A DNA stretch of 36,439 bases from an uncultured Candidatus Saccharibacteria bacterium (GCA_964455475.1 CAYVWL010000002.1:1-36439); one strand, 5' to 3'. Numbered from the stretch's first letter, positions 1,884 to 35,681 are shown. Translations and numbers: made by a program. The notes: generated from the sequence alone by a model not told the origin.

Positions 1884-3845
1884 ATGAAAGTTTCTTACAA
1901 ATGGTTACAGCAATATTTTGACGGGAAATTACCGGCCGTGGCGGAGGCAGTAAATGTTTTGACCATGAATTCTAGCGAAGTGGATGGTGTGGAAAAAGTG
2001 AAAGAAGACTACGTTTTGGACGTCAAGATTTTGCCAAATATGGCGCACAGCTGTCTCTGCCACCGGGGTATTGCTCGGGAATTTTCCGCCTTGCTGAATC
2101 TGCCGATGAAAAAATATTCTCGAGAATTTGTCCTGCCAGAATATCGTGAATTGGGACATATAAAAGAACTTGGAATAAGTAAGTTGAATTTGCAAATTAA
2201 GATTCAAAATTCCGGTGCCTGCCGGCGCTATATTGGCCGGGTAGTGGAAAATATAAAGATTGCCCCTTCGCCAGACTGGCTTCGTAATCGGCTTGAGGTT
2301 CTCGGCCAGCGGTCTATTAATAATCTGGTGGACGCGACAAACTTTGTGATGCTGGAGCTCGGTCAGCCTATGCATGTCTTTGATGCGGATAAAATAATGG
2401 GCAATACTATTGAGATAAAAATGGCCGGGGCGGGGGATGAGATAAAAACTTTGGATGGCAAGCATGTCGTATTAGACGACGGTGTTCTGACAATTTCCAA
2501 TAATAATAAAGCCCTGGCTATTGCTGGTATTAAAGGCGGGACCTTGGCGGAAATAGATGGAAAAACTAAAAATATTATTTTAGAATCGGCCAACTTTGAT
2601 CCGGTTTTAATCAGAAAGACGGCCCAGCGGATAAAAATCCAGACAGACGCTTCTAAGCGTTATGAAAATGAATTAACACCAGAATTGTGTGCTGAGGCGA
2701 TGGAGCTTTTAACCAAATTAATTTTAGAGATTGCCAGCACAGAAAATACCAAGTTGGGCAAAATGGTGGATATTTATCCAAATCCGGTGGGTCAAAATAT
2801 TCTTACCCTCTCCGTCAAAGAAGTAGAGAAACTGTTAGGGCTTAAGATAAAAGCTGGTGAGATAGCTGAGATATTCAAACGTTTTGATTTTATCTTTGAT
2901 AGGACAGGGGATGATTTTTCGGTGACGGTGCCGGTAGAACGTCTAGATCTGCGAATCAAGGAGGATCTGATAGAGGAGATCGGGCGAGTCTATGGTTATG
3001 AAAAGCTGGTTGATAATAAGGTAGAAAGTGGTAAGGAAAAAGGAAAAATAAATAAGACTTTTTATTATGCCAACAAAGTGCGTGAGATTTTAGTGAATCA
3101 AGGTTTTTCGGAAATATACGGTTATGCTTTTGCGGAAAAAGGCGATATTGAATTGGCCAATTCCGTGGCGCCAGAGAAAAAGTGGCTAAGGAATAATTTA
3201 TCCTCTGGAATTATGGATTATTTGGAATTCAACGCCCGTTATTCCGAACTTATAAATATGCCCCAGATAAAAATATTTGAGATCGGTAAGGTATTTAAAA
3301 TTGATGACGAGCATAACAATCTGGTCCTTGGTGTTAAAACGCCGAGTGGTAATAAAGGCTTGCCAAAGGATGAGGAAGTAATAAATAAAATGATTGAGAT
3401 TTTGGAGAAGGAATTGGATGCAAAATTAGTCAGAATAAATAAGGAGAAGGAGATAGCGGAGTTTAATTTTGACGAGCTCACCGCCAAATTGCCGGAAGCC
3501 AAGGCTTATGATACTGATTTGCCCCTGGCGGATAAAGACATGCGATTGAAAAAGATTTCCGTTTATCCTTTCTCTGTCCGTGATGTGGCGGTCTTTGTGC
3601 CAGAGGGTGTGGATCAGAAAACGGTGCAGGATATTATAGAGAAAGAGGCCGGTAATTTGCTCGTAAGGATCCGTCTTTTTGATGTCTTTACCAAAAAGTT
3701 CGGAACGGGCGGGGCCAAAACCTCTTATGCCTTTCGGCTGGTCTTGCAATCATATGAACATACTTTATCTGAAGAAGAGATCAATACTGCTATGGCCAAA
3801 ATCACGTCCAAGCTAAACGCCCAAACCGACTGGCAGGTACGCTAA
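1884..3845 (+). CDS. pheT: Phenylalanine--tRNA ligase beta subunit, short form (653 aa)
   Basis: Typical start MKVSYKWLQQYF. B3/4-like region (RRYIGRVVENIKIAPSPDWLRNRLEVLGQRSINNLVDATNFVMLELGQPMHVFD). B5-like region (VERLDLRIKEDLIEEIGRVYGYE). C-terminal FDX-ACB-like region (SVRDVAVFVPEG...LFDVF...SYAFRLVLQS). The OB-fold (tRNA_bind/EMAP-like) insert normally found after about residue 40 seems to be missing. Confidence 0.9.
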   Translation: MKVSYKWLQQYFDGKLPAVAEAVNVLTMNSSEVDGVEKVKEDYVLDVKILPNMAHSCLCHRGIAREFSALLNLPMKKYSREFVLPEYRELGHIKELGISKLNLQIKIQNSGACRRYIGRVVENIKIAPSPDWLRNRLEVLGQRSINNLVDATNFVMLELGQPMHVFDADKIMGNTIEIKMAGAGDEIKTLDGKHVVLDDGVLTISNNNKALAIAGIKGGTLAEIDGKTKNIILESANFDPVLIRKTAQRIKIQTDASKRYENELTPELCAEAMELLTKLILEIASTENTKLGKMVDIYPNPVGQNILTLSVKEVEKLLGLKIKAGEIAEIFKRFDFIFDRTGDDFSVTVPVERLDLRIKEDLIEEIGRVYGYEKLVDNKVESGKEKGKINKTFYYANKVREILVNQGFSEIYGYAFAEKGDIELANSVAPEKKWLRNNLSSGIMDYLEFNARYSELINMPQIKIFEIGKVFKIDDEHNNLVLGVKTPSGNKGLPKDEEVINKMIEILEKELDAKLVRINKEKEIAEFNFDELTAKLPEAKAYDTDLPLADKDMRLKKISVYPFSVRDVAVFVPEGVDQKTVQDIIEKEAGNLLVRIRLFDVFTKKFGTGGAKTSYAFRLVLQSYEHTLSEEEINTAMAKITSKLNAQTDWQVR

Positions 3846-6002: not shown

Positions 6003-9000
6003 GTGATGAAAAGGTTTCGACAATATAAAAATCTATTTATTTTTCTAGGAATATTTATATTCTTCTTTTTTATTTCAACCACGGACACTTTTGCTGCGAA
6101 CCGGTATTGGGTGGGGCCAAATAATGGTGATTTCAAGACAAATGCCAATTGGTCAACCTTATCTGGCGGTACTGGTGGCGCAAGTTATCCTCAGTCAGCA
6201 GATACGGCTATCTTTGACTCGGGAAGTAATAATTGTATTATTGCTGGTACAAATTTTACTATTGGTGTTGTTTCAATAACCAGTGGTTATTCTGGAACCA
6301 TAACAAACAATGTGACAACATTGACCGTCCCGAGCTTTTCTCAAGCGGGTGGCACATTTACAAATAACGTCAATTTGTCTTTGAGCACCACTTTTTCTTT
6401 ATCGGGAGGGGTATTTAACGCTGGGCCAGGTGTTAATGTTGGTGTTGGCACCTGGACACAGTCTGGAGGAACCTATAATCATAATAATGGAACCATTTCA
6501 TTTTGGGGGGCTAATACAATAAATGTACCGACTAGTATTACATTTTATAATTTAAATCTTGGAGCCGCTTCAGGTATTACTATAACCACTACTGCCGGCG
6601 ATACGCTGATCGTGGAGGGAACCCTTACCATGTGCACATACTCTGTGGCGACGGTCTTTACCGGGGGGACAATTGAAGCTAGAGGAAATATAAATATTCT
6701 CGCTAATACTAGTGGAACTACGGCTATCAAGGTTGGCGGAGGAGTAGCTACTACCACCTGGACGGGAAATACAAAAACCGTGAGTAATTCGGTAGAAATT
6801 GCCAAGACCGCCGGTACAGTAATAGATTTTGGTAGCGCACAAGCTTTTTTTGGGGGTAATTTTACCATCACCTCGGGAACTGTTTTAGCCCCTAGCACCA
6901 GAATGCATTTTTCTGGAGCTGGTTGGACACAAAATGGTGGAGTATTTACCCCTAATACTGGTGGTTATGTAAGTATGAATGGAAATATTACCTTGAATGT
7001 GCCAACGAATATTACTTTTTATAATTTCTATTATGGTGGTAGCACACTCAATCTTAGCGGTGATACAGTGATAGTTACCAACGCCTTTGACCCAGCTTGG
7101 TGGGGAACAGCTGGTGGAAGTACTATTAACAACGGAACAATTGAGGTGCAGGGAAATATGGTCTTGAGTGGTAATACCACCAACGGAGCAACTGGCGTCT
7201 TTAAATTTACTGGCACAGCTGATCAATCTATTTCCGGCAGTTTTACCTCTTACAATCCGGTGAATATAGCCAAGACCGGTGGGACTCTGACTGTGACTGG
7301 CATGGCCATGTATAATACTTTGACCTTTACTTCCGGTACAACAACCTTTTCTACCTTGACCAATTATTCTGCAACCGTCTTTAACGGTGGAGTGGTAAGC
7401 GGAACCTTTACAGCTTATTCTGGAAATGTAACCTATAATGGTGGTACTTTGACGGGCTTGTCCTTATCACTTGGTGGTAGTAATGCTTATATTTTAGGTA
7501 CGTTTTTTACGGTGGCAAATCTGACCGTCAGTAAGTCGAACGGGGCGTTTATAAATCCCGCCAACGCTGTTTATATTACCGTCACCGGTACCACCACCCT
7601 GTCGGACGGAGTAATTAGTAGTGACGCTGGGACATATAATGGCTATATCCTTGCGCAAGGGAATGTGGTAATCGGCTCGGGCTGGGATGCTGGTAGTTGT
7701 AGTGGAAGTCTACGCTTTGGCGGTACAAATGATCAAACGGTTTCAGCTAGTGCGGGTTTCTGTTCTGCTGTTTATATAAATAAAACTGGCGGTACCCTAA
7801 ATGTCGGTACCTGGACTGTTTCTTCAAGTCCTCTATATTTTCAGGCCGGGACGACGACTGGTTCATTGACAGCTTCTGCTAACAATATTACATATACGGC
7901 TGGTAATATATCTGGATTATCACTCACATTGTCTGGCGGAACCAAGTATATTTATGGTTCGCCGTTTACCGTGGCAAACTTGACCGTGAGTAAGACGAGC
8001 GGAAACGCTATAAATCTCGCCAACGCTGTTACTATTACCGTCACCGGTACCACCAACCTGTCGGACGGAGTGATAAGTACTGATGACGGAACTTTCAATG
8101 GTTATATTATCGCTCAAGGTAATGTAACCGTTGGAGCTAATTGGGACGCTGGTAGTTGCTATGGTAGTTTGCGTTTTACTGGCTCGGCTGATCAAACAGT
8201 CACCTCTAGCGCAGTTTTCTGTTCACCTATCTATGTGAATAAAAGTAGTGGCACTTTAAATATTGGTAACTGGACTAGCTCTGGAGCCATGTATTTCCAG
8301 GCGGGGACAGTCACTGGAAATATTACATCAGCTGGTGGAAATACTATTACATATAATGCTGGCGATATCAGTGCAGTAAATCTTACGGTCACTGGTATAG
8401 CTAGTGTGTTTGATGTCTCACCAAATGGTTCAGCCACGATTAATAGTTTGAATATGAACAAGGCCGGATCCACAGGATTTTATATTGGGTCAAGTGACAC
8501 CCTGATAGTGACCAGTACTACCACTCTTACTGACGGTTATTTCAATAGTAGTGCTTCATATACTGGTATTTTACAGGCACAAGGTGATGTGACTATTGCG
8601 TCCACTTTTGATAGCACTACTGCCTATGGAGGTTTACGATTTGCTGGCACTGCTAATCAAAATTTTTCATCTGCTATCTCCTGGACGGGCAATGTGTCGG
8701 TGACCAAGACAGCGGGGACAATCACTAATACCACTAATATTGTTCTGACCTCTTCTGCTATCACAGTACCAAGTGGGGCCACCTGGGATTTAAATGGTTT
8801 CAATTTTTCGCCAAGCGGTGGCTATACCATGGCTAGTGGTTCAACCCTGCGTTTAAAGGGAAGTGAAGTGACAGTGACTTCTCCAACATTAAGTTCTGGT
8901 AGTACGGTGGAGTATTATGGGACAGCTGTTTCGCAAACAATTAAGGCTTTCAACTACGCAAATAGTAGCTTGATTATCAATACCGGTGCCACGTCGGTGA

Positions 9001-11585
9001 ATTCACTGGCTGGAAATATCTCTGTTGCCACCACCACTATTACTTCTGGTATTTTATATTTGGCAGGATACAATCTCTCATCCACTGTCATTTCTAACAG
9101 CGGAACATTGCGATTAAAAGGTTCTGAAACTATCGCCTCTACTAATTATGGTGCCAATATTGGAGTAGTAGAATATATCGGTGATGGAGATGGCGCCTCG
9201 GATATTTATGGTATTAGCAATTTACCTTATCTTACTCTAAATCTAAACTCCACCGACAGTGCTGATATTTACAGTGATGCTGTTCCTCTGTCTATAACAA
9301 AATATAACAATGCTATTCCAAATACTTCGGACGGAGCCTCTACAGCAGGTAGGATACCGATTGGTACTTCAGGCAAGGGTGATGACGTGCAGATATATGG
9401 CTCGACAATTATTAAGGATGGAAGTATTTATAAGGCCTGGTATTCTGGATATGACGGTGCAACCTATAGAATATATTATGCCACCTCACCAGATGGCTTG
9501 GTTTGGACAAAGTATAATAATACTATACCTGCCAATTCAGACACCACTTCTACCGATGGCCGAATCCCTTTGGGTTCAAATGCCAGGGGAGATGATCTTC
9601 ATGTCTATGGACCAAATGTCATCAAGGATGGATCGACTTACAAAATGTGGTATAGCGGTCATGATGGAGCAAGTGTTAGGATTTTCTATGCTACTTCGCC
9701 AGACGGACTAACCTGGACAAAGTATAACAATGCCACTCCGAATGCCTCTGATACTACTTCAACCGATGGCCGAGTTCCGCTTGGTACTAATACTAAAGGT
9801 GATGATGCGAATACTTATTTCCCGTCAGTTATTTTAGAGGGCGGAACCTATAAGATGTGGTATGCCGGCAACGATGGTACGAATATTCGTATCTACTACG
9901 CCACCTCACCCGATGGCCTGGTCTGGACAAAGTATGATAATACTTCGCCAGCAAATTCCAATACCTCTTCCACAAACGGCCGAGTTCCGCTAGGGACAGA
10001 CACTTATGGTGATGATCTACATACTTATCAGCCGTCAGTCATTAAAGATATAAGTGGTCTGTATTTTATTCTATACACAGGCAATGATGGTACAAATGCG
10101 AGAATTTATTTAGCTTCTTCACCCGATGGTCTGGTGTGGACCAAGTATGGCAACACTACTCCGTCTGATTCTAATACAAATTCAACCGCTGGTCGCATAC
10201 CCATTGGTTCAAACACCAATGGTGACGATGTTGGCACTTATTGCCCCGTAATAATAAAGGATACAGATAATTATAAGATATGGTATTCAGGAAATGATGG
10301 GACAAATCTCTCACTATATTATGCCACTTCTCCATTTGGTCTAAATATTAATAATGATTTAAATGTTTCTGGTGGTGGTAATAGGCCGAGCGGACCAATA
10401 AATCTCGGCGGTAGTCTGGTTCAAACTGGCGGAACACTTTCAATGAATTATGTGGATTTAATTCTAAATGGTAGTAATCAGGCTCTCACTATCCTCGCCA
10501 CCACCACCCTCGCTAGTTTGAATAAATCTGTTATTTCGGCCGATACTTTAACCTTTACCGCTGGCGTGCCACTCGTCGTGACGGGAACCACCACCTTAAA
10601 TGGAATAGCTGATAATATTTTATCTCTCGTCTCATCCAGTCCAGAAACACAATGGCAATTTGATCCACAAGGTGGGAGAGATTTCTCTTACATAGATGTT
10701 ACGGACTCTTGGAATATAAATGCTGTGGAAATAGATTCTAGTGCTATCACTGGTTTTAATGATGGTGGAAATAATACCGGCTGGGGTTCTTCACAAGCTG
10801 TGGTAACTGTCGGTAAATCTGGCACACAAATCGCCACCACCACCATGCCAGTGACAAATCTTGACCTAGGTGGTGCCTTTACCTTAAACGCTACGGATGG
10901 TGATGCGGATATCACCTCCATCAAGATCAAACAAATCGGCTCTCTCGCTACCACCTCCATCACCAATGTGGAATTGTTCTACAAGGAAGAAGTGACATGT
11001 TCCACTAGTAGTTTGCCTGGAGGTGCTGTTTCCTTTGGTGTCGCTGACGCCTTTGATGAAAAGGGTATTGCCACCACTACCGGTAGTCTCACTCTGACGG
11101 ACGGTGTGCAAACCTGCCTTTATATTCAATATGATTTGCCGGACACCTACAGCACCTCCACCCTCGGGCGCAGTATTGATTTTGAAATTACCAATCCAGC
11201 CACCGATCTCACTGTCGATGGGGGAGCGGTCACCACCTCCGCCAAAGTAAATATCTCTGGCCGCACTATTGTCAGTACCACCGATATTACCTCCTTGCTT
11301 TCCTTAAAGTCTGGTGTAAATGCCGAGGATGTCACCGTCTTCTTCCTCCAAAATGATGCCGTCTGGAAAATGGTCAATGGTGGCACACCAATTCGTCTAA
11401 CAAACACTAATCTAAAAGTCCACTCCCTAACCTTCTCAGACTTTACGGCTGGTAGCAGTGGGGGCACAGTGAAAATCACCATGGTTATTTCCAATATTGA
11501 TGCTGGTACAGACCCTAATTTCCTCAGCGTCACCCGCACCTATACTACCACCGCTACGGTCAAGGCGTGGGGAGGGAATGATTAA
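6003..11585 (+). CDS. Giant secreted/surface repeat protein (1860 aa): signal anchor, beta-helix-like repeat modules, five propeller-like Asp-box repeats, C-terminal beta-rich region
   Basis: Uninterrupted 5.6-kb ORF. N-terminal hydrophobic segment LFIFLGIFIFFFFISTTDTFA, followed by RYWVGPNNGDFKTNANWS...GGTGGASYPQSADTAIF, a motif common at the start of large bacterial surface proteins. T/G/S/N-rich composition. Internal tandem repeats are listed separately. Confidence 0.85.
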   Translation: MMKRFRQYKNLFIFLGIFIFFFFISTTDTFAANRYWVGPNNGDFKTNANWSTLSGGTGGASYPQSADTAIFDSGSNNCIIAGTNFTIGVVSITSGYSGTITNNVTTLTVPSFSQAGGTFTNNVNLSLSTTFSLSGGVFNAGPGVNVGVGTWTQSGGTYNHNNGTISFWGANTINVPTSITFYNLNLGAASGITITTTAGDTLIVEGTLTMCTYSVATVFTGGTIEARGNINILANTSGTTAIKVGGGVATTTWTGNTKTVSNSVEIAKTAGTVIDFGSAQAFFGGNFTITSGTVLAPSTRMHFSGAGWTQNGGVFTPNTGGYVSMNGNITLNVPTNITFYNFYYGGSTLNLSGDTVIVTNAFDPAWWGTAGGSTINNGTIEVQGNMVLSGNTTNGATGVFKFTGTADQSISGSFTSYNPVNIAKTGGTLTVTGMAMYNTLTFTSGTTTFSTLTNYSATVFNGGVVSGTFTAYSGNVTYNGGTLTGLSLSLGGSNAYILGTFFTVANLTVSKSNGAFINPANAVYITVTGTTTLSDGVISSDAGTYNGYILAQGNVVIGSGWDAGSCSGSLRFGGTNDQTVSASAGFCSAVYINKTGGTLNVGTWTVSSSPLYFQAGTTTGSLTASANNITYTAGNISGLSLTLSGGTKYIYGSPFTVANLTVSKTSGNAINLANAVTITVTGTTNLSDGVISTDDGTFNGYIIAQGNVTVGANWDAGSCYGSLRFTGSADQTVTSSAVFCSPIYVNKSSGTLNIGNWTSSGAMYFQAGTVTGNITSAGGNTITYNAGDISAVNLTVTGIASVFDVSPNGSATINSLNMNKAGSTGFYIGSSDTLIVTSTTTLTDGYFNSSASYTGILQAQGDVTIASTFDSTTAYGGLRFAGTANQNFSSAISWTGNVSVTKTAGTITNTTNIVLTSSAITVPSGATWDLNGFNFSPSGGYTMASGSTLRLKGSEVTVTSPTLSSGSTVEYYGTAVSQTIKAFNYANSSLIINTGATSVNSLAGNISVATTTITSGILYLAGYNLSSTVISNSGTLRLKGSETIASTNYGANIGVVEYIGDGDGASDIYGISNLPYLTLNLNSTDSADIYSDAVPLSITKYNNAIPNTSDGASTAGRIPIGTSGKGDDVQIYGSTIIKDGSIYKAWYSGYDGATYRIYYATSPDGLVWTKYNNTIPANSDTTSTDGRIPLGSNARGDDLHVYGPNVIKDGSTYKMWYSGHDGASVRIFYATSPDGLTWTKYNNATPNASDTTSTDGRVPLGTNTKGDDANTYFPSVILEGGTYKMWYAGNDGTNIRIYYATSPDGLVWTKYDNTSPANSNTSSTNGRVPLGTDTYGDDLHTYQPSVIKDISGLYFILYTGNDGTNARIYLASSPDGLVWTKYGNTTPSDSNTNSTAGRIPIGSNTNGDDVGTYCPVIIKDTDNYKIWYSGNDGTNLSLYYATSPFGLNINNDLNVSGGGNRPSGPINLGGSLVQTGGTLSMNYVDLILNGSNQALTILATTTLASLNKSVISADTLTFTAGVPLVVTGTTTLNGIADNILSLVSSSPETQWQFDPQGGRDFSYIDVTDSWNINAVEIDSSAITGFNDGGNNTGWGSSQAVVTVGKSGTQIATTTMPVTNLDLGGAFTLNATDGDADITSIKIKQIGSLATTSITNVELFYKEEVTCSTSSLPGGAVSFGVADAFDEKGIATTTGSLTLTDGVQTCLYIQYDLPDTYSTSTLGRSIDFEITNPATDLTVDGGAVTTSAKVNISGRTIVSTTDITSLLSLKSGVNAEDVTVFFLQNDAVWKMVNGGTPIRLTNTNLKVHSLTFSDFTAGSSGGTVKITMVISNIDAGTDPNFLSVTRTYTTTATVKAWGGND
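7434..8810 (+). repeat. Three tandem 459-bp (153-aa) coding repeats inside the giant ORF
   Basis: Units start at 7434, 7893 and 8352, each beginning Y-N/T-G/A-G. Units 1 and 2 are highly similar (FTVANLTVSK..G.AIN.ANAV.ITVTGTT.LSDGVIS.D.GT.NGYI.AQGNV..G..WDAGSC.GSLRF.G..DQTV). Unit 3 has diverged. Earlier modules at similar spacing are marked by NVPT.ITFYN. Confidence 0.85.
9300..10349 (+). repeat. Five tandem 210-bp (70-aa) coding repeats with Asp-box-like SPDGLxWTK motifs (5-bladed beta-propeller candidate)
   Basis: Units start at 9300, 9510, 9720, 9930 and 10140. Consensus KYNN..P..SDT.ST.GR.PLG....GDD...Y.P.VIKDG..YKMWYSG.DG...RIYYATSPDGLVWT. Confidence 0.85.
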
Positions 11586-19770: not shown

Positions 19771-20124
19771 ATGAAAAAAATTATATACATTTTCTACTCA
19801 TTCGTTCTTCTGGCCCTAGCTATTCCCGTATTTGGAGCTCCAGCTACCACTTTTAGAAGTTTAATTGACAATACTATAATAGGAGGAATATTGAAGCCTC
19901 TCGTGCCCCTTCTTATTGGGCTTGCAGTAATAGTCTTTATATACGGAGTACTCTTACTTATGTTTTCCGAGGGAGGAGAGAAGAAGGAAGAGGGCAAGCA
20001 ATATATGCTCTGGGGAATTATTGGTATTTTTGTGATGGTATCAGTCTGGGGTCTGGTGGCCATACTTAGTAATACTCTTCAGTTGGATAACGCCCCAAAA
20101 ACCGTCAAAATCGAATTGAAGTAA
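19771..20124 (+). CDS. VirB2/TrbC-like small membrane protein, paralog 3
   Basis: Signal peptide MKKIIYIFYSFVLLALAIPVFG, TM1, loop SEGGEKKEEGKQ, TM2 (MLWGIIGIFVMVSVWGLVAIL). Confidence 0.6.
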   Translation: MKKIIYIFYSFVLLALAIPVFGAPATTFRSLIDNTIIGGILKPLVPLLIGLAVIVFIYGVLLLMFSEGGEKKEEGKQYMLWGIIGIFVMVSVWGLVAILSNTLQLDNAPKTVKIELK

Positions 20125-20150
20125 GTACAGACTCCCTGTGGATACCTTGT

Positions 20151-20179
20151 TTGCTGATTTAATGATAAAAAGTTATAAT
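20151..20179 (+). promoter_or_regulatory. Internal promoter within the pilin-like array
   Basis: TTGCTG (20151-20156), 17-nt spacer, TATAAT (20174-20179), in the only long (110-bp) gap of the array. Confidence 0.5.
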
Positions 20180-20234
20180 TATCAGGTAAAAATAATCAAA
20201 GGTCGTAAATTTATTAATCGCTTAGGATAAAATT

Positions 20235-20624
20235 GTGAAAAAAATTATAATCAGTCTGGGTTTAACTATAATAGTAGGGTTACCTATGCTGGTTTTAGCT
20301 CAGACTAGTATAAATTCACTTTTTGTTAGTGCCAGGACCATTCTAAACAGCGCAATTATATTCCTGATCTCCCTTGCTGTCTGTTGGTTTATCTGGAATG
20401 TGATTCAGTATGCTATCGCCCAGGATGAAGAAAAAAAGGGAGACGCAAAAGGTCAAATGGTCTGGGGGATAATTGCTATCGCTGTTATCGTATCAATCTG
20501 GGGTTTGGTGAATATCTTGCAGGTACTTTTTGGAACCAAGACTGATAAAGCCAAGACCAATTCAGAACTAGAGAATATGATACCCGGGGTAGTCTTGCAA
20601 ATAGAAAATATAGCAGAAGTTTAA
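20235..20624 (+). CDS. VirB2/TrbC-like small membrane protein, paralog 4 (GTG start)
   Basis: Signal peptide, TM1 (FLISLAVCWFIWNVIQY), loop AQDEEKKGDAKGQ, TM2 (MVWGIIAIAVIVSIWGLVNIL). Shares a 30-nt identical block (20376-20405) with paralog 5 (20831-20860). Confidence 0.6.
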   Translation: MKKIIISLGLTIIVGLPMLVLAQTSINSLFVSARTILNSAIIFLISLAVCWFIWNVIQYAIAQDEEKKGDAKGQMVWGIIAIAVIVSIWGLVNILQVLFGTKTDKAKTNSELENMIPGVVLQIENIAEV

Positions 20625-20659
20625 AAATATTTATTAGTTTATTAATTTATTAAAATAAT

Positions 20660-21028
20660 ATGAAAAAAATTGTCAAAATTGGAGTGGGATCACTTTGGGC
20701 TTTGCCTTTTATGGCACTAGCAGCGGGTGCGGCAGGTACTGTCGATGGTAGTTATTTAACTGGCTTATTTGATAATGCAAAATGGATATTGGATAAAGTA
20801 GTTGTCTTTCTTATTTCCTTGGCTGTCTGTTGGTTTATCTGGAATGTGATTAGTTATACCATATCAGAGGATGAGGAAAAGAAGGGTGCGGCCAAGAGCC
20901 AGATGATCTGGGGTATTGTGGCTATCGCTGTCATCGTTTCCATTTGGGGTATAGTGGCTATCCTTCAAAATCTGTTTGGAGCGGGTGGTGGAACGGCTAT
21001 AACTCCAGCAGATCTTCTCCCACAATAA
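20660..21028 (+). CDS. VirB2/TrbC-like small membrane protein, paralog 5
   Basis: Signal peptide, TM1 (FLISLAVCWFIWNVISY), loop SEDEEKKGAAKSQ, TM2 (MIWGIVAIAVIVSIWGIVAIL). Looks like a recent duplicate of paralog 4. Confidence 0.6.
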   Translation: MKKIVKIGVGSLWALPFMALAAGAAGTVDGSYLTGLFDNAKWILDKVVVFLISLAVCWFIWNVISYTISEDEEKKGAAKSQMIWGIVAIAVIVSIWGIVAILQNLFGAGGGTAITPADLLPQ

Positions 21029-21412: not shown

Positions 21413-22039
21413 TTACTCCATCGTCCCAATCAGGCTGCAGATCGCCACTGGTCCATCTGGTAGCCAGGTAATTGTCCCTGACCAGGCATTTGTCCCCGTC
21501 TCACGCATATCTACCCGACTGTGTTCCTTTGGCCTGTCCTGGTCCCTATCTCCGGACCAAGTTTTGCCTGCCTTCAGTCCGACCCTGCCCAGACGTATCC
21601 TTTCCCTTTCTGGCCTACCAAATTCGATGTAGGGAACATCGAAATACAGGGATTCGGTGCTGTTTTCAATCATCTCAGCCACCGTTACTTCATCGGCGTT
21701 TCTGTTTCGTCCGTGGATGTACTCCCCAGACGGAACGTACCATGTCCACCGGTACACCATCTTTTGGGTACGGGCAACTGGTATCTGACTGACACTGAGA
21801 GGAGCTGGCAACGCAGGATTATTCAGTCTGCTCTCCTCCTGGGCCTTCTGCTCACGTTGCCGATTCTGAGTCATCTCCCGAAAGAGAGGCACGAGAATCA
21901 GTGCGATAATAAGCGCCGACACTGTGATCAGCCAAGGCTTCTTCCTCCCCGCCGTCCCTTTCATCGCTTTCCAGGCCCACACGATCAGGACGATAATGAG
22001 TAGGCTAACGAGCAGAAATTCTACATGTACAACGGTCAT
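21413..22039 (-). CDS. Hypothetical membrane protein (two N-terminal TM segments plus an unrecognised soluble domain)
   Basis: ORF with a strong SD (AAAGGAGAGACTC-ATG). TM1 FLLVSLLIIVLIVWAW, TM2 WLITVSALIIALILVPLF. Composition is G+C-rich relative to the flanks. No family recognised. Confidence 0.6.
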   Translation of the reverse strand: MTVVHVEFLLVSLLIIVLIVWAWKAMKGTAGRKKPWLITVSALIIALILVPLFREMTQNRQREQKAQEESRLNNPALPAPLSVSQIPVARTQKMVYRWTWYVPSGEYIHGRNRNADEVTVAEMIENSTESLYFDVPYIEFGRPERERIRLGRVGLKAGKTWSGDRDQDRPKEHSRVDMRETGTNAWSGTITWLPDGPVAICSLIGTME

Positions 22040-23404: not shown

Positions 23405-24400
23405 GTCAAGGAAAATGTTATGGTTCAATAGCTTGGAAACACTTCCCCATATATACTATGAAAATGTCATACACAAAGAATCCGTATCTCCCCAAGGTCC
23501 GTCAGGACGCCGCCGACTTGGTCCGTCGCGGTTGGGGCGTGAGAAAAGTCGCCAGATATGTCGGGGTCAGTCCGGGGACGATCACCAAGTGGGTTAAGAG
23601 AGCTAAGGTAATTGGCTACCACCCCATCCCCACCCTGTCCTCACGACCAAAACATCATCCGCGACAACTGAGCAGTGAATTGGTTTGGAAAATATATCAT
23701 AAACGAGTTCAGATTAAACGGAGCGCCGAGGTGGTCAGACAGGAATTGATCAACGAAGGAATACCGGTGTCCCTGTCTTCGGTCAAACGAACTTTAGACC
23801 GGATGGGTTTGCTAAACAAGAGAAGTCCGTGGAAACGATATCATTTGCCAATCCAGCGACCAGACGTCCAAAAACAAGGTGATTTGGTGCAAATTGACAC
23901 TGTTCACCTTCTGAACGAACATGGGAAAAGAGTGTACGTTTTCACTTTGCTTGATGTGTATTCACGATATGCTTTTGCTCGCGCCTACGAACGAGCGACT
24001 TCAGCCACCGCTTTTCGTTTTCTGAATTGGTGTCAGAAGCAAGTAGATTTCAAATTCCAAACCGTCCAAAGTGACAACGGTTCCGAGTTCGCTGGTTGGT
24101 TCAGTGATCATATTAAATCCGTCCACCGACATACCAGAGTGCGAAGACCAAATGACAATGGACACCTGGAGAGATTCAACCGCACGGTGCAAGAGGAATG
24201 TTTGGACAAGGTGGAAAAGAAAGTTTCGAAGATCAATCAAGCCCTGACAAAATACATGAAATATTACAACGAAAAACGTCTGCATTTTGGGTTGAATTTG
24301 CAGACACCTTTACAAGCTTTAACTAACAAGTGTTTCCAAGGTATTGATTAGAATACGGGAAAATAAGGAGAGAGCAAAAGCGAGCGACTATATTTTCCTA
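23405..24400 (+). mobile_element. IS481-family-like insertion sequence (boundaries approximate)
   Basis: Single DDE transposase ORF. An imperfect terminal inverted repeat is possible: AAGGAAAATGTTATGG near 23411 against the reverse complement of CGACTATATTTTCCTAT near 24385-24401 (an AGGAAAAT core plus scattered matches). No direct repeats seen. Confidence 0.5.
23458..24351 (+). CDS. IS481-family DDE transposase (HTH + rve integrase core)
   Basis: N-terminal HTH (RRGWGVRKVARYVGVSPGTITKWVKR). DDE candidates in LVQIDTVHL, VQSDNGSEF and NGHLERFNRTVQEE, with retroviral-integrase-like spacing. Confidence 0.8.
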   Translation: MKMSYTKNPYLPKVRQDAADLVRRGWGVRKVARYVGVSPGTITKWVKRAKVIGYHPIPTLSSRPKHHPRQLSSELVWKIYHKRVQIKRSAEVVRQELINEGIPVSLSSVKRTLDRMGLLNKRSPWKRYHLPIQRPDVQKQGDLVQIDTVHLLNEHGKRVYVFTLLDVYSRYAFARAYERATSATAFRFLNWCQKQVDFKFQTVQSDNGSEFAGWFSDHIKSVHRHTRVRRPNDNGHLERFNRTVQEECLDKVEKKVSKINQALTKYMKYYNEKRLHFGLNLQTPLQALTNKCFQGID

Positions 24401-28006: not shown

Positions 28007-28477
28007 TTACGGGACAAGTATAGAATTTTTTGCCTTGGTCATGGCCTCGCGCTCTTCATTTGTCAATTCACCTTGCTCGGAAATTAAATTCTTGATTGGT
28101 TTGGAAAAGACACTGATATGGTCCCGAGAATACATGCTGGAAATAATCACGCCATTTTTCTCTTCGTTTAGGAAAGCCGTGGCAAAGCTTTGATTACCGC
28201 CGGAACCGTCACCTTTGAACGGATTAAAGCGGACAGTCTCCACACCGGAAACGGTTTTCTTTAGACGGGCATCAGTCACTTTGAAAGTCTCTTCTGCCTT
28301 ACCTTGAAACTTTTTCAGGTCCGTAATCTCCTTGGTCAAAATTGCCAATGATTCATCTAGGTTTTTTGCTTTGCCTACGAGGAGTTTCCCCAGCTTGTTT
28401 TGTAGCCAAAGAACCCAGATAAACAAGATAATTATGACGAGAGCCAAAGCTCCCAAGATGTATATTTCAAATGTCAT
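28007..28477 (-). CDS. DUF4446-like membrane-anchored protein
   Basis: N-terminal TM, a coiled segment, then VRFNPFKGDGSGGNQSFATAFLNEEKNGVIISSMYSRD...SKPI...LTNEE. This matches my memory of the DUF4446 pattern (RYDAF..GG..SFS.ALLD..G.G.V.SS...R...YAKP...LS.EE). Confidence 0.6.
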   Translation of the reverse strand: MTFEIYILGALALVIIILFIWVLWLQNKLGKLLVGKAKNLDESLAILTKEITDLKKFQGKAEETFKVTDARLKKTVSGVETVRFNPFKGDGSGGNQSFATAFLNEEKNGVIISSMYSRDHISVFSKPIKNLISEQGELTNEEREAMTKAKNSILVP

Positions 28478-30260: not shown

Positions 30261-30307
30261 GGTCATCTACCGCGAATTGGTTGGCTCGGGAAGGTACTGA
30301 GCAACAA

Positions 30308-30361
30308 GTCCACTTTGTGGGCGGGGGAAAGTCCCGTCTGCACAGGTGGGCTTTTTCTTTT
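30308..30361 (+). terminator. GC-rich structured region ending in a T-run (putative terminator of the small G+C-rich gene)
   Basis: GTCCAC-TTT-GTGGGC, then a GGGCGGG...CCCGTCT stem with G-U pairs, then GGTGGGCTTTTTCTTTT. The fold is not a clean single hairpin. Confidence 0.45.
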
Positions 30362-30420
30362 GAATAATATTTTAATTTTCCTTGCAAGTTGTAACTGGAA
30401 TTATATAATTAGATGTAGAT

Positions 30421-30726
30421 ATGTTTTATACCTATGTTTTACGAAGTCTAAAAAATGCCAGTCTGTATACTGGTTATACAAATGATTTGCGAGCAAGGGT
30501 CCATGAGCATAACAGTGGACTTTCTGAATATACAAAGAAATATTTACCATACGAGTTAATCTATTATGAATCGTGTTTAGATGAGGGTGATGCTAGGGCG
30601 AGAGAAAAACAGTTAAAGACGGGGTTGGGGAAAAGGTATTTAAAATTAAGGTTAAGGAGGTTTTTTAGAAAAAGCATTGTGGGCATGGATCCCGTTCGAT
30701 GTTCAGGGAGGAAAGAGTCTATATAA
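30421..30726 (+). CDS. Small GIY-YIG (URI-domain) nuclease family protein
   Basis: FYTYVLRS...LYTGYTNDLRARVHEHNSG ... YYESC...ARAREKQLK. This is the classic layout of stand-alone GIY-YIG proteins of about 90 aa. Confidence 0.8.
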   Translation: MFYTYVLRSLKNASLYTGYTNDLRARVHEHNSGLSEYTKKYLPYELIYYESCLDEGDARAREKQLKTGLGKRYLKLRLRRFFRKSIVGMDPVRCSGRKESI

Positions 30727-30794
30727 GTTGTAAATTTATCAAGTTAGTAGTACAATTGTTGTTAAGGTTAATAATTAAAACATCAAACGGGATG
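30689..30794 (+). promoter_or_regulatory. Leader element copy A: 15-bp arms enclosing a promoter and overlapping the start codon of the HtrA-like gene
   Basis: ATCCCGTTCGATGTT (30689-30703) pairs with AACATCAAACGGGAT (30779-30793) at 14 of 15 positions. The loop holds TTGTAA-17-TACAAT (30728-30756). The 3' 27 nt are nearly identical to copy B. Confidence 0.7.
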
Positions 30795-31670
30795 GATATG
30801 GAGAAACTCACAAAACAACAGATAGTTTTGGTCACGCTTTTGGTGAGCTTTGTGACTTCTATTGCCACAGGGATTGTGACGGTGGCCCTGATGGACCAGG
30901 CACCAGCGGGCGTGACACAAACGATAAACCGCGTGGTGGAGAGGACGATTGAAAAGGTAGTCACCGAGCCAGCTAAAAATAATAATACTGCCGCAGTGGT
31001 GACGCGCGAGACTATTGTGGTGAAAGAGGACGACAAAATCGTGGAGTCCGTGGATAAAAATAAAAATAGCATTGTTCGTATTTATACTAAAATGGATAAT
31101 GCCGGAGACGTGGCCGGGAATACTTTTATTGGTCTTGGTACCATCGTCTCCAAGGAGGGCCTGATTGTGACCGGTGATGTGTTTGCGGATCAGAGTGGTA
31201 AATATTTAGTGACCGTGGATAATAATAAATTCTATTCCGTAAAAGTTCTACCTAGAAAAGGCAATAGTCAATTTTATTTCTTGAAAGTTATTCAGGATGA
31301 AAAAGCTCCTGTCATTTTTTCACCGGTTAGCTTTTCTGATTCTAGTGGTTTAAAGCTGGGCCAAACCGTGATTGCTTGGGGTGGGCAAATTCAGAATTCG
31401 GTTTCTACTGGTATTGTTTCCAGCCTCGTGGATGTGGAGGGTAAGGTAGAGCAAGCCAGCACCACGGCCTCTACCACCAAGGTGGTCACCAGAGAAATTA
31501 TTGCTATCAATACCAATATTAATCTGGCAGACAGCCTCTCCGGTGGGCCACTCCTAAACCTTTATGGTGAAGTGGTGGGGATCCGCGTCAGCTCGGGCAT
31601 TTCCGAAAAATATAATTTTCTCCCCTCAAATCTCTTAAAGTCTGAAGTTTTGGCCGTGACTGCCCTTTAG
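30792..31670 (+). CDS. Membrane-anchored trypsin-fold HtrA/DegP-like protein without PDZ, with catalytic His and Asp apparently replaced
   Basis: Start taken at ATG 30792 (MDMEKL..., followed by the TM LVTLLVSFVTSIATGIVTVAL). S1C-like blocks GLGTIVSKEGLIVTGDVF, LKLGQTVIAWGG, STGIVSS and SLSGGPLLNLYGEVVGI. Where HtrA has TNNHV this protein has TGDVF. Where HtrA has D(I/L)ALLK it has QFYFLKV. Confidence 0.7.
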   Translation: MDMEKLTKQQIVLVTLLVSFVTSIATGIVTVALMDQAPAGVTQTINRVVERTIEKVVTEPAKNNNTAAVVTRETIVVKEDDKIVESVDKNKNSIVRIYTKMDNAGDVAGNTFIGLGTIVSKEGLIVTGDVFADQSGKYLVTVDNNKFYSVKVLPRKGNSQFYFLKVIQDEKAPVIFSPVSFSDSSGLKLGQTVIAWGGQIQNSVSTGIVSSLVDVEGKVEQASTTASTTKVVTREIIAINTNINLADSLSGGPLLNLYGEVVGIRVSSGISEKYNFLPSNLLKSEVLAVTAL

Positions 31671-31725
31671 TTTGAATTATTCTCACTTTCTGCTATTATA
31701 AATTTATCAGTCTTTTTGCATTTTG

Positions 31726-31830
31726 ATCCCGTTTGAAGTTCTGGGATGGTGATTTTGTGATGATGTTGAATTTAATAAGAAATTGTTATAATGTGTATTA
31801 GCGTTAATAATTAAAACTTCAAACGGGATG
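31726..31830 (+). promoter_or_regulatory. Leader element copy B: 15-bp perfect arms enclosing a promoter and overlapping the clpB start codon
   Basis: ATCCCGTTTGAAGTT (31726-31740) pairs perfectly with AACTTCAAACGGGAT (31815-31829). The loop holds TGtTATAAT (31784-31792). The distance from the -10 box to the ATG is the same as in copy A. Confidence 0.7.
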
Positions 31831-34467
31831 CCCCCATTTAATAATTTTACAACCAAAGCCAAGGAGGTGATACGCCGAGCCCACGAGCTGGCTATTGAGC
31901 GTGGCCAAAATCATGTAAACCCCACTCATTTATTGATGGCCTTGATTATGCAGGAGGAGAGTATGGTGTCCTCAATTTTAGACAGACTGGAGATAGATGT
32001 GATGTCTCTCACGGATACCTTGCTAGAAGTAATTGACAGCATTTCCGCTGGTACCAATATCTCTTCACCCGCCATGCAAATATATCTGACGCCGGATTTG
32101 GCATTGGTGATAGAATCCTCGGGCAAGATTGCCAAGGAGCTGAAGGATGATTTTATTTCCACTGAGCATTTATTTATTAGTACTATGGATACACCCAGCC
32201 AAGCACGAGATATTTTAGCGCGTTATAAAATTGACCGGCTAAAAGTAGTAAAAATCTTAGAGGAATTTAAAAACAATAATATTACAGAAGTTCCCACCAC
32301 AAAAAAGTTCAAAGCAATTTTAAAATATACCCGAAATCTGACCAAGCTGGCCAAGGAAAATAAGCTGGACCCCGTGATCGGCCGTGATGTGGAGATTAGC
32401 CGTATCATTCAGATCTTGTCACGACGCACGAAAAATAATCCTATCCTGATTGGTGAGGCGGGGGTGGGCAAGACGGCGATAGTAGAGGGTCTGGCTATCC
32501 GGATGTCCACGGGGGATGTGCCAGAGTCTTTGAAGGATAAAGAACTGGTGTCCTTGGATATGGGTATGCTCATTGCTGGGACCAAATATCGTGGAGAGTT
32601 TGAAGAGCGTCTAAAAAATATAATAAAAGAGATTGAAAAGTCTGAAGGGAAAATAATTGTTTTCATTGATGAAATACATACTATTGTTGGGGCCGGTTCG
32701 GCGGAAGGCTCGCTTGATGCCTCAAATATGCTCAAGCCAGCTTTGTCCCGTGGTGAATTCCGCACCATTGGTGCCACCACCACCAAGGAATATCAGAAGA
32801 TAGAAAAGGATCCGGCGCTCACTCGGCGCTTTCAGTCTGTCTATGTAAATGAACCGTCCATTGAAGATGCTATTGCTATCATGCGTGGGCTAAAAGATAA
32901 ATATGAGTTGTATCACGGAGTGCGTATTACAGACGATGCTATTATTGCTTCGGTAAATCTAAGCTCGCGCTATATTACTGATAGATTTCTACCAGACAAA
33001 GCGGTAGACCTGATAGATGAAGCGGCCTCGTCCTTAAAAATTTCTTTGGAGAATATGCCACCGATTTTAGAGGAGACACATAGGCGAGTCCTGCGTCTAG
33101 AGATCGAACGTGAGGCCTTGCGTAAGGAGGCGGAGAGTGGGGACATGAAAGCCAAAACTCGCACCAAAATAATTGAAAAAGAAATTGCCGATCTGAAAGA
33201 AAAGACTGCGGAGATAGAATTGAAATGGAAAAATGAAAAGGAAACTATCACGGATATTAAAGCGTTGAAAAAAGGCTTGGAGCAGGCCAGAATAGAAGCG
33301 GAATCAGCGGAAGCACGGGTAGACTTGGCCAAGGCTGCGGAAATCCGTTATGGCACAATTCCCCAGATGGAAAAAGATTTGGCGACAAAAGTAAAGAGAC
33401 TGAAAACTTTGCAAAGCTCGCGCCAAATGCTCAAGGAAGAAATTGGTGAGGAAGATATTGCAGACATTGTGTCAAAATGGACCGGTGTGCCGGTGATGAG
33501 GATGCTCGAGGCTGAGGCGGAAAAATTGAATCGGATGGAAGAGGAATTGAAGAAAAGGATAATCGGTCAGGATGAAGCGGTGAAAAAAATAGCAGATACG
33601 GTAAAGCGTTCTCGGGCCGGCATCTCGGATCCAAATAGGCCTATCGGCTCGTTTATTTTCCTTGGCCCCACCGGTGTGGGAAAGACAGAGCTGACCAAGG
33701 CTCTGGCAGAATTTATGTTTGATGATGAGAAAGCCTTGATCCGTGTGGATATGTCTGAATTTATGGAGCGCCATTCTGTGTCAAAGCTGATTGGCTCACC
33801 GCCGGGTTATGTGGGTTATGAGGAGGGGGGCAATCTGACGGAGATGGTGCGTCACCGCCCTTATTCCGTAATCCTCTTTGATGAGATAGAAAAAGCTCAT
33901 CCGGAGGTGTTTAATATTTTACTGCAGGTGCTGGATAATGGCCGGCTGACGGATGCCAAGGGGCGTACGGTGAACTTTAAAAATACCGTCATCATTCTCA
34001 CCTCCAATATCGGCGCACAATACATTGATAAGATGGAAGAGATTGGCTTTAGTATGGAGAAGAGTAAGCATAATGAATATGAAGATGTGAAAGGCAAAGT
34101 CACCAAGGCCCTGAAGGATCATTTCCGTCCGGAATTTTTAAATCGTTTGGATGATGTGATCATCTTTGATATCTTGAGTGAGAAGGCGGTATCACAGATT
34201 GTGGATATTCAGTTGGAGATTGTCCGTAAGAGATTGGAAGAAAAAGAAATAAAATTAGTGATCAGTAAGGAAGTGATTTCGTATCTCGCGCGTGAAGGTT
34301 ATAATCCGCAGTATGGGGCCAGGCCCTTAAAGCGCTTGATTCAGGAAAAGATTTTGAATCCGGTGGCCGGCCTTATGATTTCCCGTGGCGTGCTCGCCGG
34401 TGGGGTAGTCACCGTTGGTTTTAAGAATAAAGAGTTCACCTTTGAGGTGAAGGGGAAGAAGAAATAA
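31828..34467 (+). CDS. clpB: ATP-dependent chaperone/disaggregase ClpB
   Basis: Clp N domain. Two AAA+ modules ([15 protein letters not shown]; [15 protein letters not shown]). A long coiled-coil M-domain lies between them ([11 protein letters not shown]...[10 protein letters not shown]). [19 protein letters not shown]. Confidence 0.96.
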
Positions 34468-34662: not shown

Positions 34663-35154
34663 CTAATTAAATTTTCTATTCATAAGCATCTGAGTCTGGA
34701 TATTATTCTCCTGAATATATTTTTTCATCATGCCTCTCATTGGGCCCTTTTGAGACATAACATCATTTGCACCGGTAATATCAATAATATAGCCACCTAT
34801 TATTATAGCTAGGACAAAGCCAGCTATTACTAACCACGGTTTTAGCTTGTATGAAAAATCATATTGACGAATGAGCCAAATACCTAGAGCCAGGCCCAGG
34901 ATAGCAAGCAGTAGCGTCCACCAAGGGAAACTAGATAGGATTTGATCAAATTTATACTGACCCATAGGCCCATGTGAACGAAGGGAAAACCTTATGAGAC
35001 CAACAGAGAAGGTGGAAACAATTACAGTAGAAACTAAACCAATAAAGGTAATAATAGAGCCAAGTATAAAATAGCCCTTAGGTTTCATTTTTAATTTACC
35101 CTGGTTTATCTGCTCCATAATATTTTCAGTGATGTTTTTTAATTCTTTTGGCAT
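34663..35154 (-). CDS. Multi-pass membrane protein, candidate anti-sigma factor
   Basis: The ORF overlaps the 3' end of the ECF sigma gene by 16 nt. About four TM segments. The function is inferred from gene context only. Confidence 0.4.
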   Translation of the reverse strand: MPKELKNITENIMEQINQGKLKMKPKGYFILGSIITFIGLVSTVIVSTFSVGLIRFSLRSHGPMGQYKFDQILSSFPWWTLLLAILGLALGIWLIRQYDFSYKLKPWLVIAGFVLAIIIGGYIIDITGANDVMSQKGPMRGMMKKYIQENNIQTQMLMNRKFN

Positions 35155-35681
35155 ATATTTTTCATTAATTTCTTTGCTCTATTAATTCTCACCGCTACTG
35201 TCCCCATGGGTATTCTCAATATATCACTTATTTCCTCATATGTTTTGCCTTCTAAATAATATAGGGAAAGTGGCTCGGAGTAGAGTAGGGGAATTTCCTT
35301 TAGGCATTTTTCTACCTGTAATTTTGTTTCTCCTTGAATAAAATTTTCTTCAATATTTTCGTCGCTCTTGAAATCAATATCATCTAAGAGGGGGGTCTCG
35401 CCGGGGTATTTTTTTAATAAATTAAGGGCTTCATTGTGCACTATCCGGTAAATCCAGCTCCCAAATTTATGCTTAATATTAAAACTATTTAAATTGATGA
35501 AAGCTTTGATAAAGGAATTTTGCACAATATCCACCGCTTTATCCTCATCCTTGATCAAACTGTTAGCATAATGCAACAACTTCTTCTGATAGCGCTCTAT
35601 GATTATAGCAAAAAGATTTGTATCAGTTGTCCTGACCTTCTCTACCACTTTTTCATCGGATAATTCAACTCTTTCAGTCAT
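35139..35681 (-). CDS. ECF-type RNA polymerase sigma-70 family factor
   Basis: Region 2 (DIVQNSFIKAF...FGSWIYRIVHNEALN). Region 4 HTH (YEEISDILRIPMGTVAVRINRAKKLM). 180 aa. Confidence 0.85.
   Translation of the reverse strand: MTERVELSDEKVVEKVRTTDTNLFAIIIERYQKKLLHYANSLIKDEDKAVDIVQNSFIKAFINLNSFNIKHKFGSWIYRIVHNEALNLLKKYPGETPLLDDIDFKSDENIEENFIQGETKLQVEKCLKEIPLLYSEPLSLYYLEGKTYEEISDILRIPMGTVAVRINRAKKLMKNICQKN

Follow-up and report, generated by a model that had tools for sequence, protein, structure and literature searches.

The closest described counterparts of the sequence unit analyzed here are small mobile elements and mobile promoters. The Correia elements (CREE/NEMIS) of Neisseria are mobile non-coding sequences of ~100-150 bp with terminal inverted repeats that lie near genes; they supply promoter elements, and their hairpin can affect the mRNA when co-transcribed (PMC2649163, PMC2229807), in which case it is sensitive to RNase III (PMC2649163). 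Mobile promoters were described as highly similar upstream regions located before non-homologous genes, within and between genomes, that rewire transcription (PMC3575422). Rickettsia palindromic elements insert without destroying reading frames, and MITEs associated with start codons or leaderless genes are absent from the same 2024 review of MITEs (PMC10969869). Likewise, our literature search found no publication dealing with MITEs of Patescibacteria, nor any dealing with MITEs tied to start codons.

Here, we examined two ~105-bp units with 15-bp inverted ends (copies A and B), each abutting the ATG of a gene, in the window (i.e., the whole 36,439-nt stretch of DNA that was analyzed). We lean toward the reading that each copy is a non-coding, MITE-like mobile promoter cassette of ~105 bp found at gene start codons, with its arms serving as terminal inverted repeats. 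Like prokaryotic MITEs (RUP, ERIC, Nezha, and RPE), the cassette is small, has no ORF, has inverted ends and an A+T-rich interior, and displays insertion polymorphism; unlike them, it has a flank repeat of 1-2 nt that is not universal and is placed at the first codon rather than in intergenic or in-frame internal positions. Correia elements have ~26-bp ends of unrelated sequence with a TA duplication, whereas the cassette has 15-bp arms and GR flanks; furthermore, Correia elements carry promoters at the element ends, number hundreds per genome, and have no tie to start codons, while the cassette has an internal promoter, is present in few copies, and appears to rebuild an ATG. Because the ends, the duplication, and the host (Patescibacteria) differ, the cassette was not assigned to the Correia family. 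Mobile promoters are defined by upstream similarity alone, to which the cassette adds inverted ends, a flank repeat, and an exact start-codon register. Finally, copies located before clpB and before an HtrA-like gene, with a start codon that can pair, are reminiscent of RNA thermometers (ROSE and fourU) and of the heat-shock operators CIRCE/HrcA, HAIR/HspR, and CtsR box; however, the cassette has a long, stable helix, lacks a Shine-Dalgarno sequence that could be masked, and is not confined to stress genes. What is distinctive is the exact start-codon register, with ATG regeneration, in an apparently leaderless lineage.

The features of the two copies and of the flanking DNA are compiled in Table 1. 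The first-pass annotation had viewed the copies as a conserved leader with arms that sequester the start codon, and both the arm layout and the overlap of the 3′ arm with the ATG were borne out, with 75 nt (copy A) and 74 nt (copy B) between the arms. The exchange that it had reported between T30700/A30782 of copy A and A31737/T31818 of copy B is a true double change. Pairing of the arms extends to only 14 of 15 positions in copy A, where C30697 faces A30785; the 5′ arms of the two copies therefore differ at two positions, only one of which is compensated. The identical stretch preceding each ATG had also been overestimated and is 25-26 nt (GTTAATAATTAAAACNTCAAACGGG), not 27 nt. These four arms were the only exact arm matches in the 36-kb window, and when the window was scanned with a degenerate arm 15-mer, the matches without mismatch exceeded chance while those with three mismatches were at chance level. 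The GG of the left flank of copy A recurs straight after its 3′ arm (30794-30795).

Table 1. Coordinates of copies A and B and of neighboring features in the window
Feature	Position	Strand	Sequence or remark
GIY-YIG ORF directly upstream of copy A	30421-30726	+	frame runs through the copy A 5′ arm
Left-flank ATGG before copy A	30685-30688	+	what is left of the start codon that the HtrA-like gene originally had
Copy A 5′ arm (left terminal inverted repeat)	30689-30703	+	ATCCCGTTCGATGTT
Copy A internal sigma70-like promoter	30728-30756	+	TTGTAA-17-TACAAT; -10 ends 35 nt before the ATG
Copy A A/U-rich leader block	30767-30781	+	GTTAATAATTAAAAC (CGTTTATTATTAAAAC in other copies); without Shine-Dalgarno
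Copy A 3′ arm (right terminal inverted repeat)	30779-30793	+	AACATCAAACGGGAT; last two bases supply the start-codon AT
Trypsin_2 (HtrA-like, S1-C) protease gene served by copy A	30792-31670	+	292 aa; Pfam; identical protein on record from this contig
Native clpB promoter	31672-31699	+	TTGAAT-16-TATTAT with TG; still present before copy B
Native clpB leader remnant abutting copy B	31715-31725	+	TTTGCATTTTG; from comparison with L003, L009, L055, and L101
Copy B 5′ arm	31726-31740	+	ATCCCGTTTGAAGTT
Copy B internal promoter region	31764-31794	+	TTGAAT ... TGtTATAAT (TGtTATAAT at 31784-31792, TATAAT at 31787-31792); from alignment to copy A
Copy B conserved leader block	31803-31817	+	GTTAATAATTAAAAC
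Copy B 3′ arm	31815-31829	+	AACTTCAAACGGGAT; final AT is the AT of the clpB ATG
clpB served by copy B	31828-34467	+	Pfam; N-terminus MPPF as in orthologues

The relatives of clpB place the window, which is a complete NCBI contig, in the Patescibacteria, bacteria with tiny genomes, among Paceibacteria and Taylorbacteria-like MAGs. In the window, most genes start without a Shine-Dalgarno sequence, and many are preceded by a -10 hexamer at a distance of 6-12 nt, including TATAAT-type starts (e.g., 6003, 25938, 28546, and 35681), while a clear GGAG was detected only at the gene 21413-22039. The host appears to be mainly leaderless or otherwise Shine-Dalgarno independent in initiation.

The distribution of the unit was examined in related genomes and in metagenomes. 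Among 80 clpB orthologue loci (72-91% amino acid identity), none had the motif upstream of clpB, nor did L101, and only one of the 80 loci (L007) had the motif anywhere, in this case before the HtrA-like gene. A metagenome scan for paired arms yielded 18 loci; two of these are duplicates, and three (L086, L088, and L096) represent one GC-rich coding stretch with imperfect arms that was counted as chance, with 12-13 distinct AT-rich sites of the same architecture and orientation remaining. This architecture consists of an arm, CAGGGAGG, an A/T-rich interior, the TTATTAAAAC block, and an arm followed by the ATG, with the unit spanning 103-113 bp between the outer ends of the arms and having no conserved ORF. 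The genes located behind the copies encode (i) a TrmB-like regulator (L081), signal peptidase I (lepB), and a DUF4446 protein (L087); (ii) a solute-binding protein (SBP; two orthologous copies, L085 and L089), class II aldolase (fba), and ribosomal protein L9 (rplI); and (iii) GatC (gatC, two copies), phosphoketolase, and LysRS (lysS); one additional copy is positioned 21 nt before fusA and one is beside tuf. The gene set has no stress theme and no functional coherence. The element is real and recurs at further gene starts, whereas the dedicated stress regulon signal proposed for it did not hold, as the motif is missing from clpB in all 80 loci and in L101 as well as from most HtrA-like orthologues, and the other copies precede housekeeping genes. 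The accompanying statement that CIRCE, HAIR, and the CtsR box are not matched is upheld: CIRCE and HAIR were not found in the window, and the sole CtsR-like match (two mismatches) is inside gyrB.

Scanning all fetched loci (~1.03 Mb) with nhmmer revealed no further diverged copies except that of L108, a locus retrieved via its protein and not via the arm pattern, and no single arms were detected in this ~1.03 Mb of related DNA. We counted two copies in the 36-kb window, a single one across 890 kb of relatives, and only about a dozen sites in the entire metagenome scan; such seemingly low numbers are unlike a typical MITE burst. When viral contigs were searched with a looser paired pattern, a single chance match inside GC-rich coding DNA was obtained. 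The sequence AACGGGATG upstream of the HtrA-like gene of L052 was considered as a remnant of the unit and rejected because the 5′ arm is missing.

Four orthologous sites were found in both an empty and a filled state: those of the HtrA-like gene, clpB, the SBP gene, and the DUF4446 gene. The HtrA-like site is empty in L001-L006, L008, L101, and L105-L107, where it reads TATAAT-N6-ATGGATATGG (ATGGAT), and is filled in the window, L007, and L108, with the latter two keeping (T/G)ATGG before the 5′ arm. The window itself is empty at 17670, the SBP site (TAA followed by ATGAAAAAC), which is filled in L085 and L089, and at 28477, the DUF4446 site (GGTATAATCCCTAACTGTATGACA), which is filled in L087; there, GGTATAATTCCTAACTGTATGA precedes the element and GAATCTTGAA follows it, with a left flank (GGTATAATnCCTAACTGTATGA) as in the window. 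The 3′ arm ends in the ATG of the gene in 13 of 15 copies. A 2-nt flank repeat (GA/GA or GG/GG) was observed in 8 of 15 copies compared with a permuted mean of 3.7 (P = 0.002), while the repeat is G only in 3 copies and absent in 4. The old ATG, GTG, or TTG is kept on the left, often together with a -10-like hexamer, as in L084 (TACAAT-7-ATG), L095 (TATAAT-7-ATG), and L091 (TAGAGT-7-ATG); such a stranded start and -10 box fit the leaderless gene starts of the window. Copy B is not a simple insertion, as ~22 nt of native clpB leader were replaced when compared with L101; these ~22 nt follow TTTGCATTTTG in the relatives (L003, L009, L055, and L101 compared) and are absent at copy B. Given the partial flank repeats and the replacement at copy B, a fixed-stagger transposase does not cleanly account for the mechanism.

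Interiors of copies at different genes were found to be similar, with identities of 83% (L007/L087), 77% (L090/L091), and 75% (copy A/L098) relative to a shuffled baseline of 57 ± 5%. These values can exceed that of the same-gene pair formed by copy A and L007 (67%), which fits copying between sites. In L090 (reverse strand), the 20 nt on the left of the element (~645-665), where the upstream gene ends (...GCAAGTTCAGGGGAATAA), repeat the AAGTTCAGGGAG block of the cassette, suggestive of an incomplete tandem duplication or of a leftover from an earlier copy.

A promoter-like site with its -10 ending 33-35 nt before the ATG was identified between the arms in most of the AT-rich copies, including L007, L087, and L108, in which it reads TTGAGT-16-TGaTAGAAT. 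With this placement, the main transcript is predicted to start downstream of the 5′ arm and should be without it. The main mRNA should begin, as predicted from promoter position, ~28 nt before the ATG and carry the 3′ arm only, with an open leader of ~28-29 nt. Because of this conserved sigma70-like promoter, a transcribed leader was not retained as the primary role of the unit. The hexamers of the native clpB promoter are also present upstream of clpB in the element-free L101, and the retention of this promoter upstream of copy B, as well as read-through from the GIY-YIG gene, implies that some transcripts would carry both arms and form the helix. The RNA with the 3′ arm only had predicted folding energies of -7.2 and -4.3 kcal/mol, not different from shuffles and thus unstructured, while with both arms the values were -25.6 (copy A) and -29.0 kcal/mol (copy B), with z of about -3; the 15-bp arm helix was computed at about -20 kcal/mol or stronger. 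The proposal that the helix melts with temperature was not supported, as the in silico fold, with a helix of 14-15 bp, is too stable for an RNA thermometer; in thermometers of the ROSE and fourU types, a weak helix with mismatches masks the SD/AUG in the transcribed 5′ UTR and melts at 37-42 °C. Occlusion of the start codon is physically plausible only for a minority of upstream transcripts, where it would provide insulation and not a stress switch. An SD-like GGGAGG after the 5′ arm was considered as the ribosome site of a small ORF and dismissed, as a suitably spaced ATG is present in few copies only; a leader peptide or uORF was similarly dismissed because the frames and stops behind the upstream ATG, GTG, or TTG differ among copies. 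In the GC-richer organism represented by L084 and L097 (L084 element, 1884-1996), the arms are perfect, an internal promoter is not recognizable, and an internal repeat, TCGAAGTTCAA, is present. Without an internal promoter, the native TACAAT-7-ATG of L084 would be the sole driver of lepB, whose mRNA would then include the two arms.

The arms were compared across 16 copies, in which 97% of the arm cells are paired and 11 of 15 positions are invariant while the interior diverges. The first-pass claim of compensatory change extends to the additional copies at one position and fails at another. Arm position 12 (pair 18-112) covaries, being AU in 10 copies, UA in 4, GC in 1, and unpaired in 1; L108 provides a fifth UA copy, and the orthologous pair L085/L089 differs at this position on both arms. 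There is no covariation at position 9 (the C of a CpG), which is UA in 6 copies, UG in 3, CG in 2, and mismatched in 5, with neither strand favored. Position 10 is otherwise almost never changed, and here L007 and L108 have an A.C mismatch in common. The distant GC-rich copy L083 is complementary at 15 of 15 positions with double changes at three, one of which falls outside the search pattern. In these terms, the compensatory change reflects arm variants (GAWGTT) that differ from one another but are held matched on both ends. When L007 and L108 were compared, the arms were identical at 30 of 30 positions, the promoter and leader were near-identical, and the whole element was 88.6% identical, while the flanks were less alike (GIY-YIG gene, 80%; protease gene, 77%). 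Between copy A and L007, the arms were identical at 28 of 30 positions, whereas identity was 60% for the interior and 42% at third codon positions. Judged by these alignments, the arms and promoter are under constraint in place, unlike a decaying transposon end, which points to a function at the level of the host beyond that of a passive transposon end and keeps models based on an operator or on RNA alive. The mix of specific bases, matched transversions, and tolerated transition mismatches fits sites that are read by a protein on both ends, e.g., terminal inverted repeats, and is compatible with pairing. The arms may therefore have a secondary role, either by pairing within RNA when transcripts read through or by binding protein.

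The constraint on the arms could be explained by an operator pair, in which two sites ~90 bp apart bracket the promoter (at ~-68 and +22), a regulator loops or clamps the DNA between them, and the cassette now acts as a regulon signal. The 11 invariant positions would be expected of such sites, as would the tolerance of C or T at position 9 next to an almost fixed position 10, a pattern typical of base-specific protein contacts; in addition, arms of orthologous copies are identical at 28 to 30 of 30 positions compared with 74-80% for the coding flanks, and the copy before the TrmB-like regulator gene (L081) could represent autoregulation. However, the genes concerned are functionally incoherent and close orthologues of the same genes are without sites, the arm spacing varies from 88 to 94 bp (109 bp in L084) such that helical phasing is not kept, and single arms do not occur in the related DNA; moreover, independent binding sites give no reason for the agreement at position 12 within a unit. 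We regard this operator as unlikely, although it retains some weight. The agreement at position 12 would be required of a crossover core if the arms were recombination sites at which a site-specific recombinase inverts the 75-bp promoter segment and so switches it on or off, and inverted repeats that bracket a promoter, matched to one another, would be explained in this way. Such an inverton is nevertheless highly improbable, as all 17 copies examined have the same orientation (nhmmer scores of 44-79 bits forward versus 15-31 bits reversed) and no recombinase gene is adjacent in any locus. To our knowledge, the 75-bp segment is also far shorter than known invertible segments.

Covariation at position 12 would also fit a transcribed 5′ leader, in which pairing over a long range conceals the start codon until stress opens the helix, as in an RNA thermometer or riboregulator. 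The full complementarity of L083, with its three double changes, is in line with this leader, as are the dominance of the helix in the predicted fold whenever both arms are transcribed and the native clpB promoter and GIY-YIG gene upstream, by which some transcripts contain both arms. Against it, the promoter is inside the putative loop, such that the main mRNA should lack the 5′ arm, the stability of the helix far exceeds that of known thermometers, and there is no link to stress genes. Furthermore, C.A is present at position 9 in 5 of 16 copies without strand bias for G.U-compatible states, and an A.C persists at position 10 in L007 and L108; sequence is conserved and not pairing alone. We consider a stress-responsive leader to be quite unlikely and assign it a small chance.

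Several traits of MITEs were observed in the cassette that we favor: (i) a length of 103-113 bp, inside the ~50-500 bp range of MITEs, without a coding gene of its own, with upstream starts in different frames; and (ii) terminal inverted repeats of 15 bp found at at least 12 distinct sites elsewhere in addition to the two in the window. An autonomous IS with the same ends was not present in the window or in the ~1.03 Mb of fetched loci. The window does include an IS481-like insertion sequence (23425-24347) with a 297-aa HTH and rve transposase (23458-24351); this transposase, the sole one of the window, was rejected as a partner since the 20-bp ends of the insertion sequence (TCAATAGCTTGGAAACACTT and AAGTGTTTCCAAGGTATTGA) are unrelated to the arms. 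The end consensus of the IS982 family is AC(N)6T(N)5TT (PMC7335449), and a link to this family was set aside as the consensus is too loose and its likeness to the arms loose only. No Rfam match was found in 30300-32200 at permissive E-values, only sub-threshold chance hits, and a tRNA-derived origin of the arms was discarded after ARAGORN predicted no tRNA in L082, L083, and L092. Integron attC sites were likewise excluded: the outer ends of the cassette are ATCCCG/CGGGAT and not RYYYAAC/GTTRRRY, the GTT is on the 5′ side and the AAC on the 3′ side in the order opposite to attC, and a promoter and no self-complementarity are found in the interior, while attC is located downstream of cassette ORFs.

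Additional observations were made on the neighborhoods. A GIY-YIG gene precedes the cassette at the HtrA-like gene in the window (30421-30726), L007 (3-293), L108 (4456-4734), and also GCA_041442895.1, with the end of its ORF inside or beyond the 5′ arm. The three or four lineages with both the GIY-YIG gene and the cassette are not each other's closest relatives, and the closer L105 and L101 lack both; based on this distribution, the two may travel together. A motif, (T)TT(G/A)CATTTTGAT(A/T)TTT, was detected ~31 nt upstream of the clpB ATG in relatives without the element, with positions in L003 (2908), L009 (4290 and 5286), and L055 (5970). L009 also has it before the HtrA-like gene, and the leaders that contain it are T-rich and periodic. 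In the window, 31715-31727 keeps only the left half of the CATTTTGAT motif, next to copy B. As a candidate, this motif could be the real control element of clpB and htrA in the lineage. Just downstream of clpB, 34663-35681 (minus strand) encodes an ECF-type sigma factor (Sigma70_r2/r4_2, 180 aa) and an overlapping ORF of 163 aa that is likely an anti-sigma factor, and the same pair is near clpB in GCA_041442895.1. Elsewhere in the window, a BRO-N domain ORF (284 aa, 1029-1883) is positioned between pheS (204-968) and pheT (1884-3845); BRO-N is a typical mobile or phage-associated domain, here inside an otherwise conserved operon. Three tandem small ORFs (117-129 aa) at 19771-21028 have the same start, ATG/GTG AAAAAAATT, and the syntenic neighborhood in relatives (L101) has T4SS_pilin (PF18895) genes. 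A very large ORF (1860 aa, 6003-11585) has a GTG start and a leaderless-type promoter with TATAAT 7 nt upstream.

For the mobile promoter cassette, the following scheme is proposed. The unit has two 15-bp ends (ATCCCGTTYGAWGTT and its complement), which enclose the left subterminal block CAGGGAGG, a promoter of the sigma70 type, and an A/U-rich leader that has no Shine-Dalgarno sequence, and its arms would be the sites of a trans-acting transposase or recombinase. Insertion would take place at the start codon, between AT and G, with duplication of the dinucleotide G+R; the terminal AT of the cassette and the duplicated G would rebuild the ATG, and the original ATG would be stranded on the left, along with the original -10 box where the gene is leaderless. 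The gene would then be transcribed mainly from the internal promoter, presumed to be active, to form an mRNA with the 3′ arm only, and those upstream transcripts that have both arms would fold and bury the AUG, probably insulating the gene. The scheme builds on what was observed directly, namely the recurrence of the unit, the empty and filled states of its sites, the position of the promoter, and the flank repeats. By regenerating the ATG from its own AT, the cassette would allow the promoter and leader of any gene, even a leaderless one, to be replaced with the ORF untouched. The exact placement at start codons could reflect survivorship rather than target choice. A stronger form of this proposal, in which the cassette is a promoter-swapping element with the start codon as its insertion specificity and with arms that were later kept by selection in cis, is possible and on present evidence rather doubtful; the putative role of the arms in cis would be RNA pairing in read-through, which would insulate or process the message, or binding of protein.

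These findings remove a tempting annotation of a heat-shock signal in Patescibacteria and put a compact mobile promoter unit in its place. Conservation of the arms and promoter above that of the flanking coding DNA suggests that the host now depends on the cassette. If the cassette is indeed targeted to start codons and its arms are under selection, it would represent a novel mobile regulatory module and provide a first view of how leaderless Patescibacteria rewire expression. Likewise, if the start-codon register reflects target choice, small genomes would have a way to exchange promoters with the coding sequence undamaged. The cassette offers a testable handle on the initiation of transcription and translation in uncultivated CPR bacteria.
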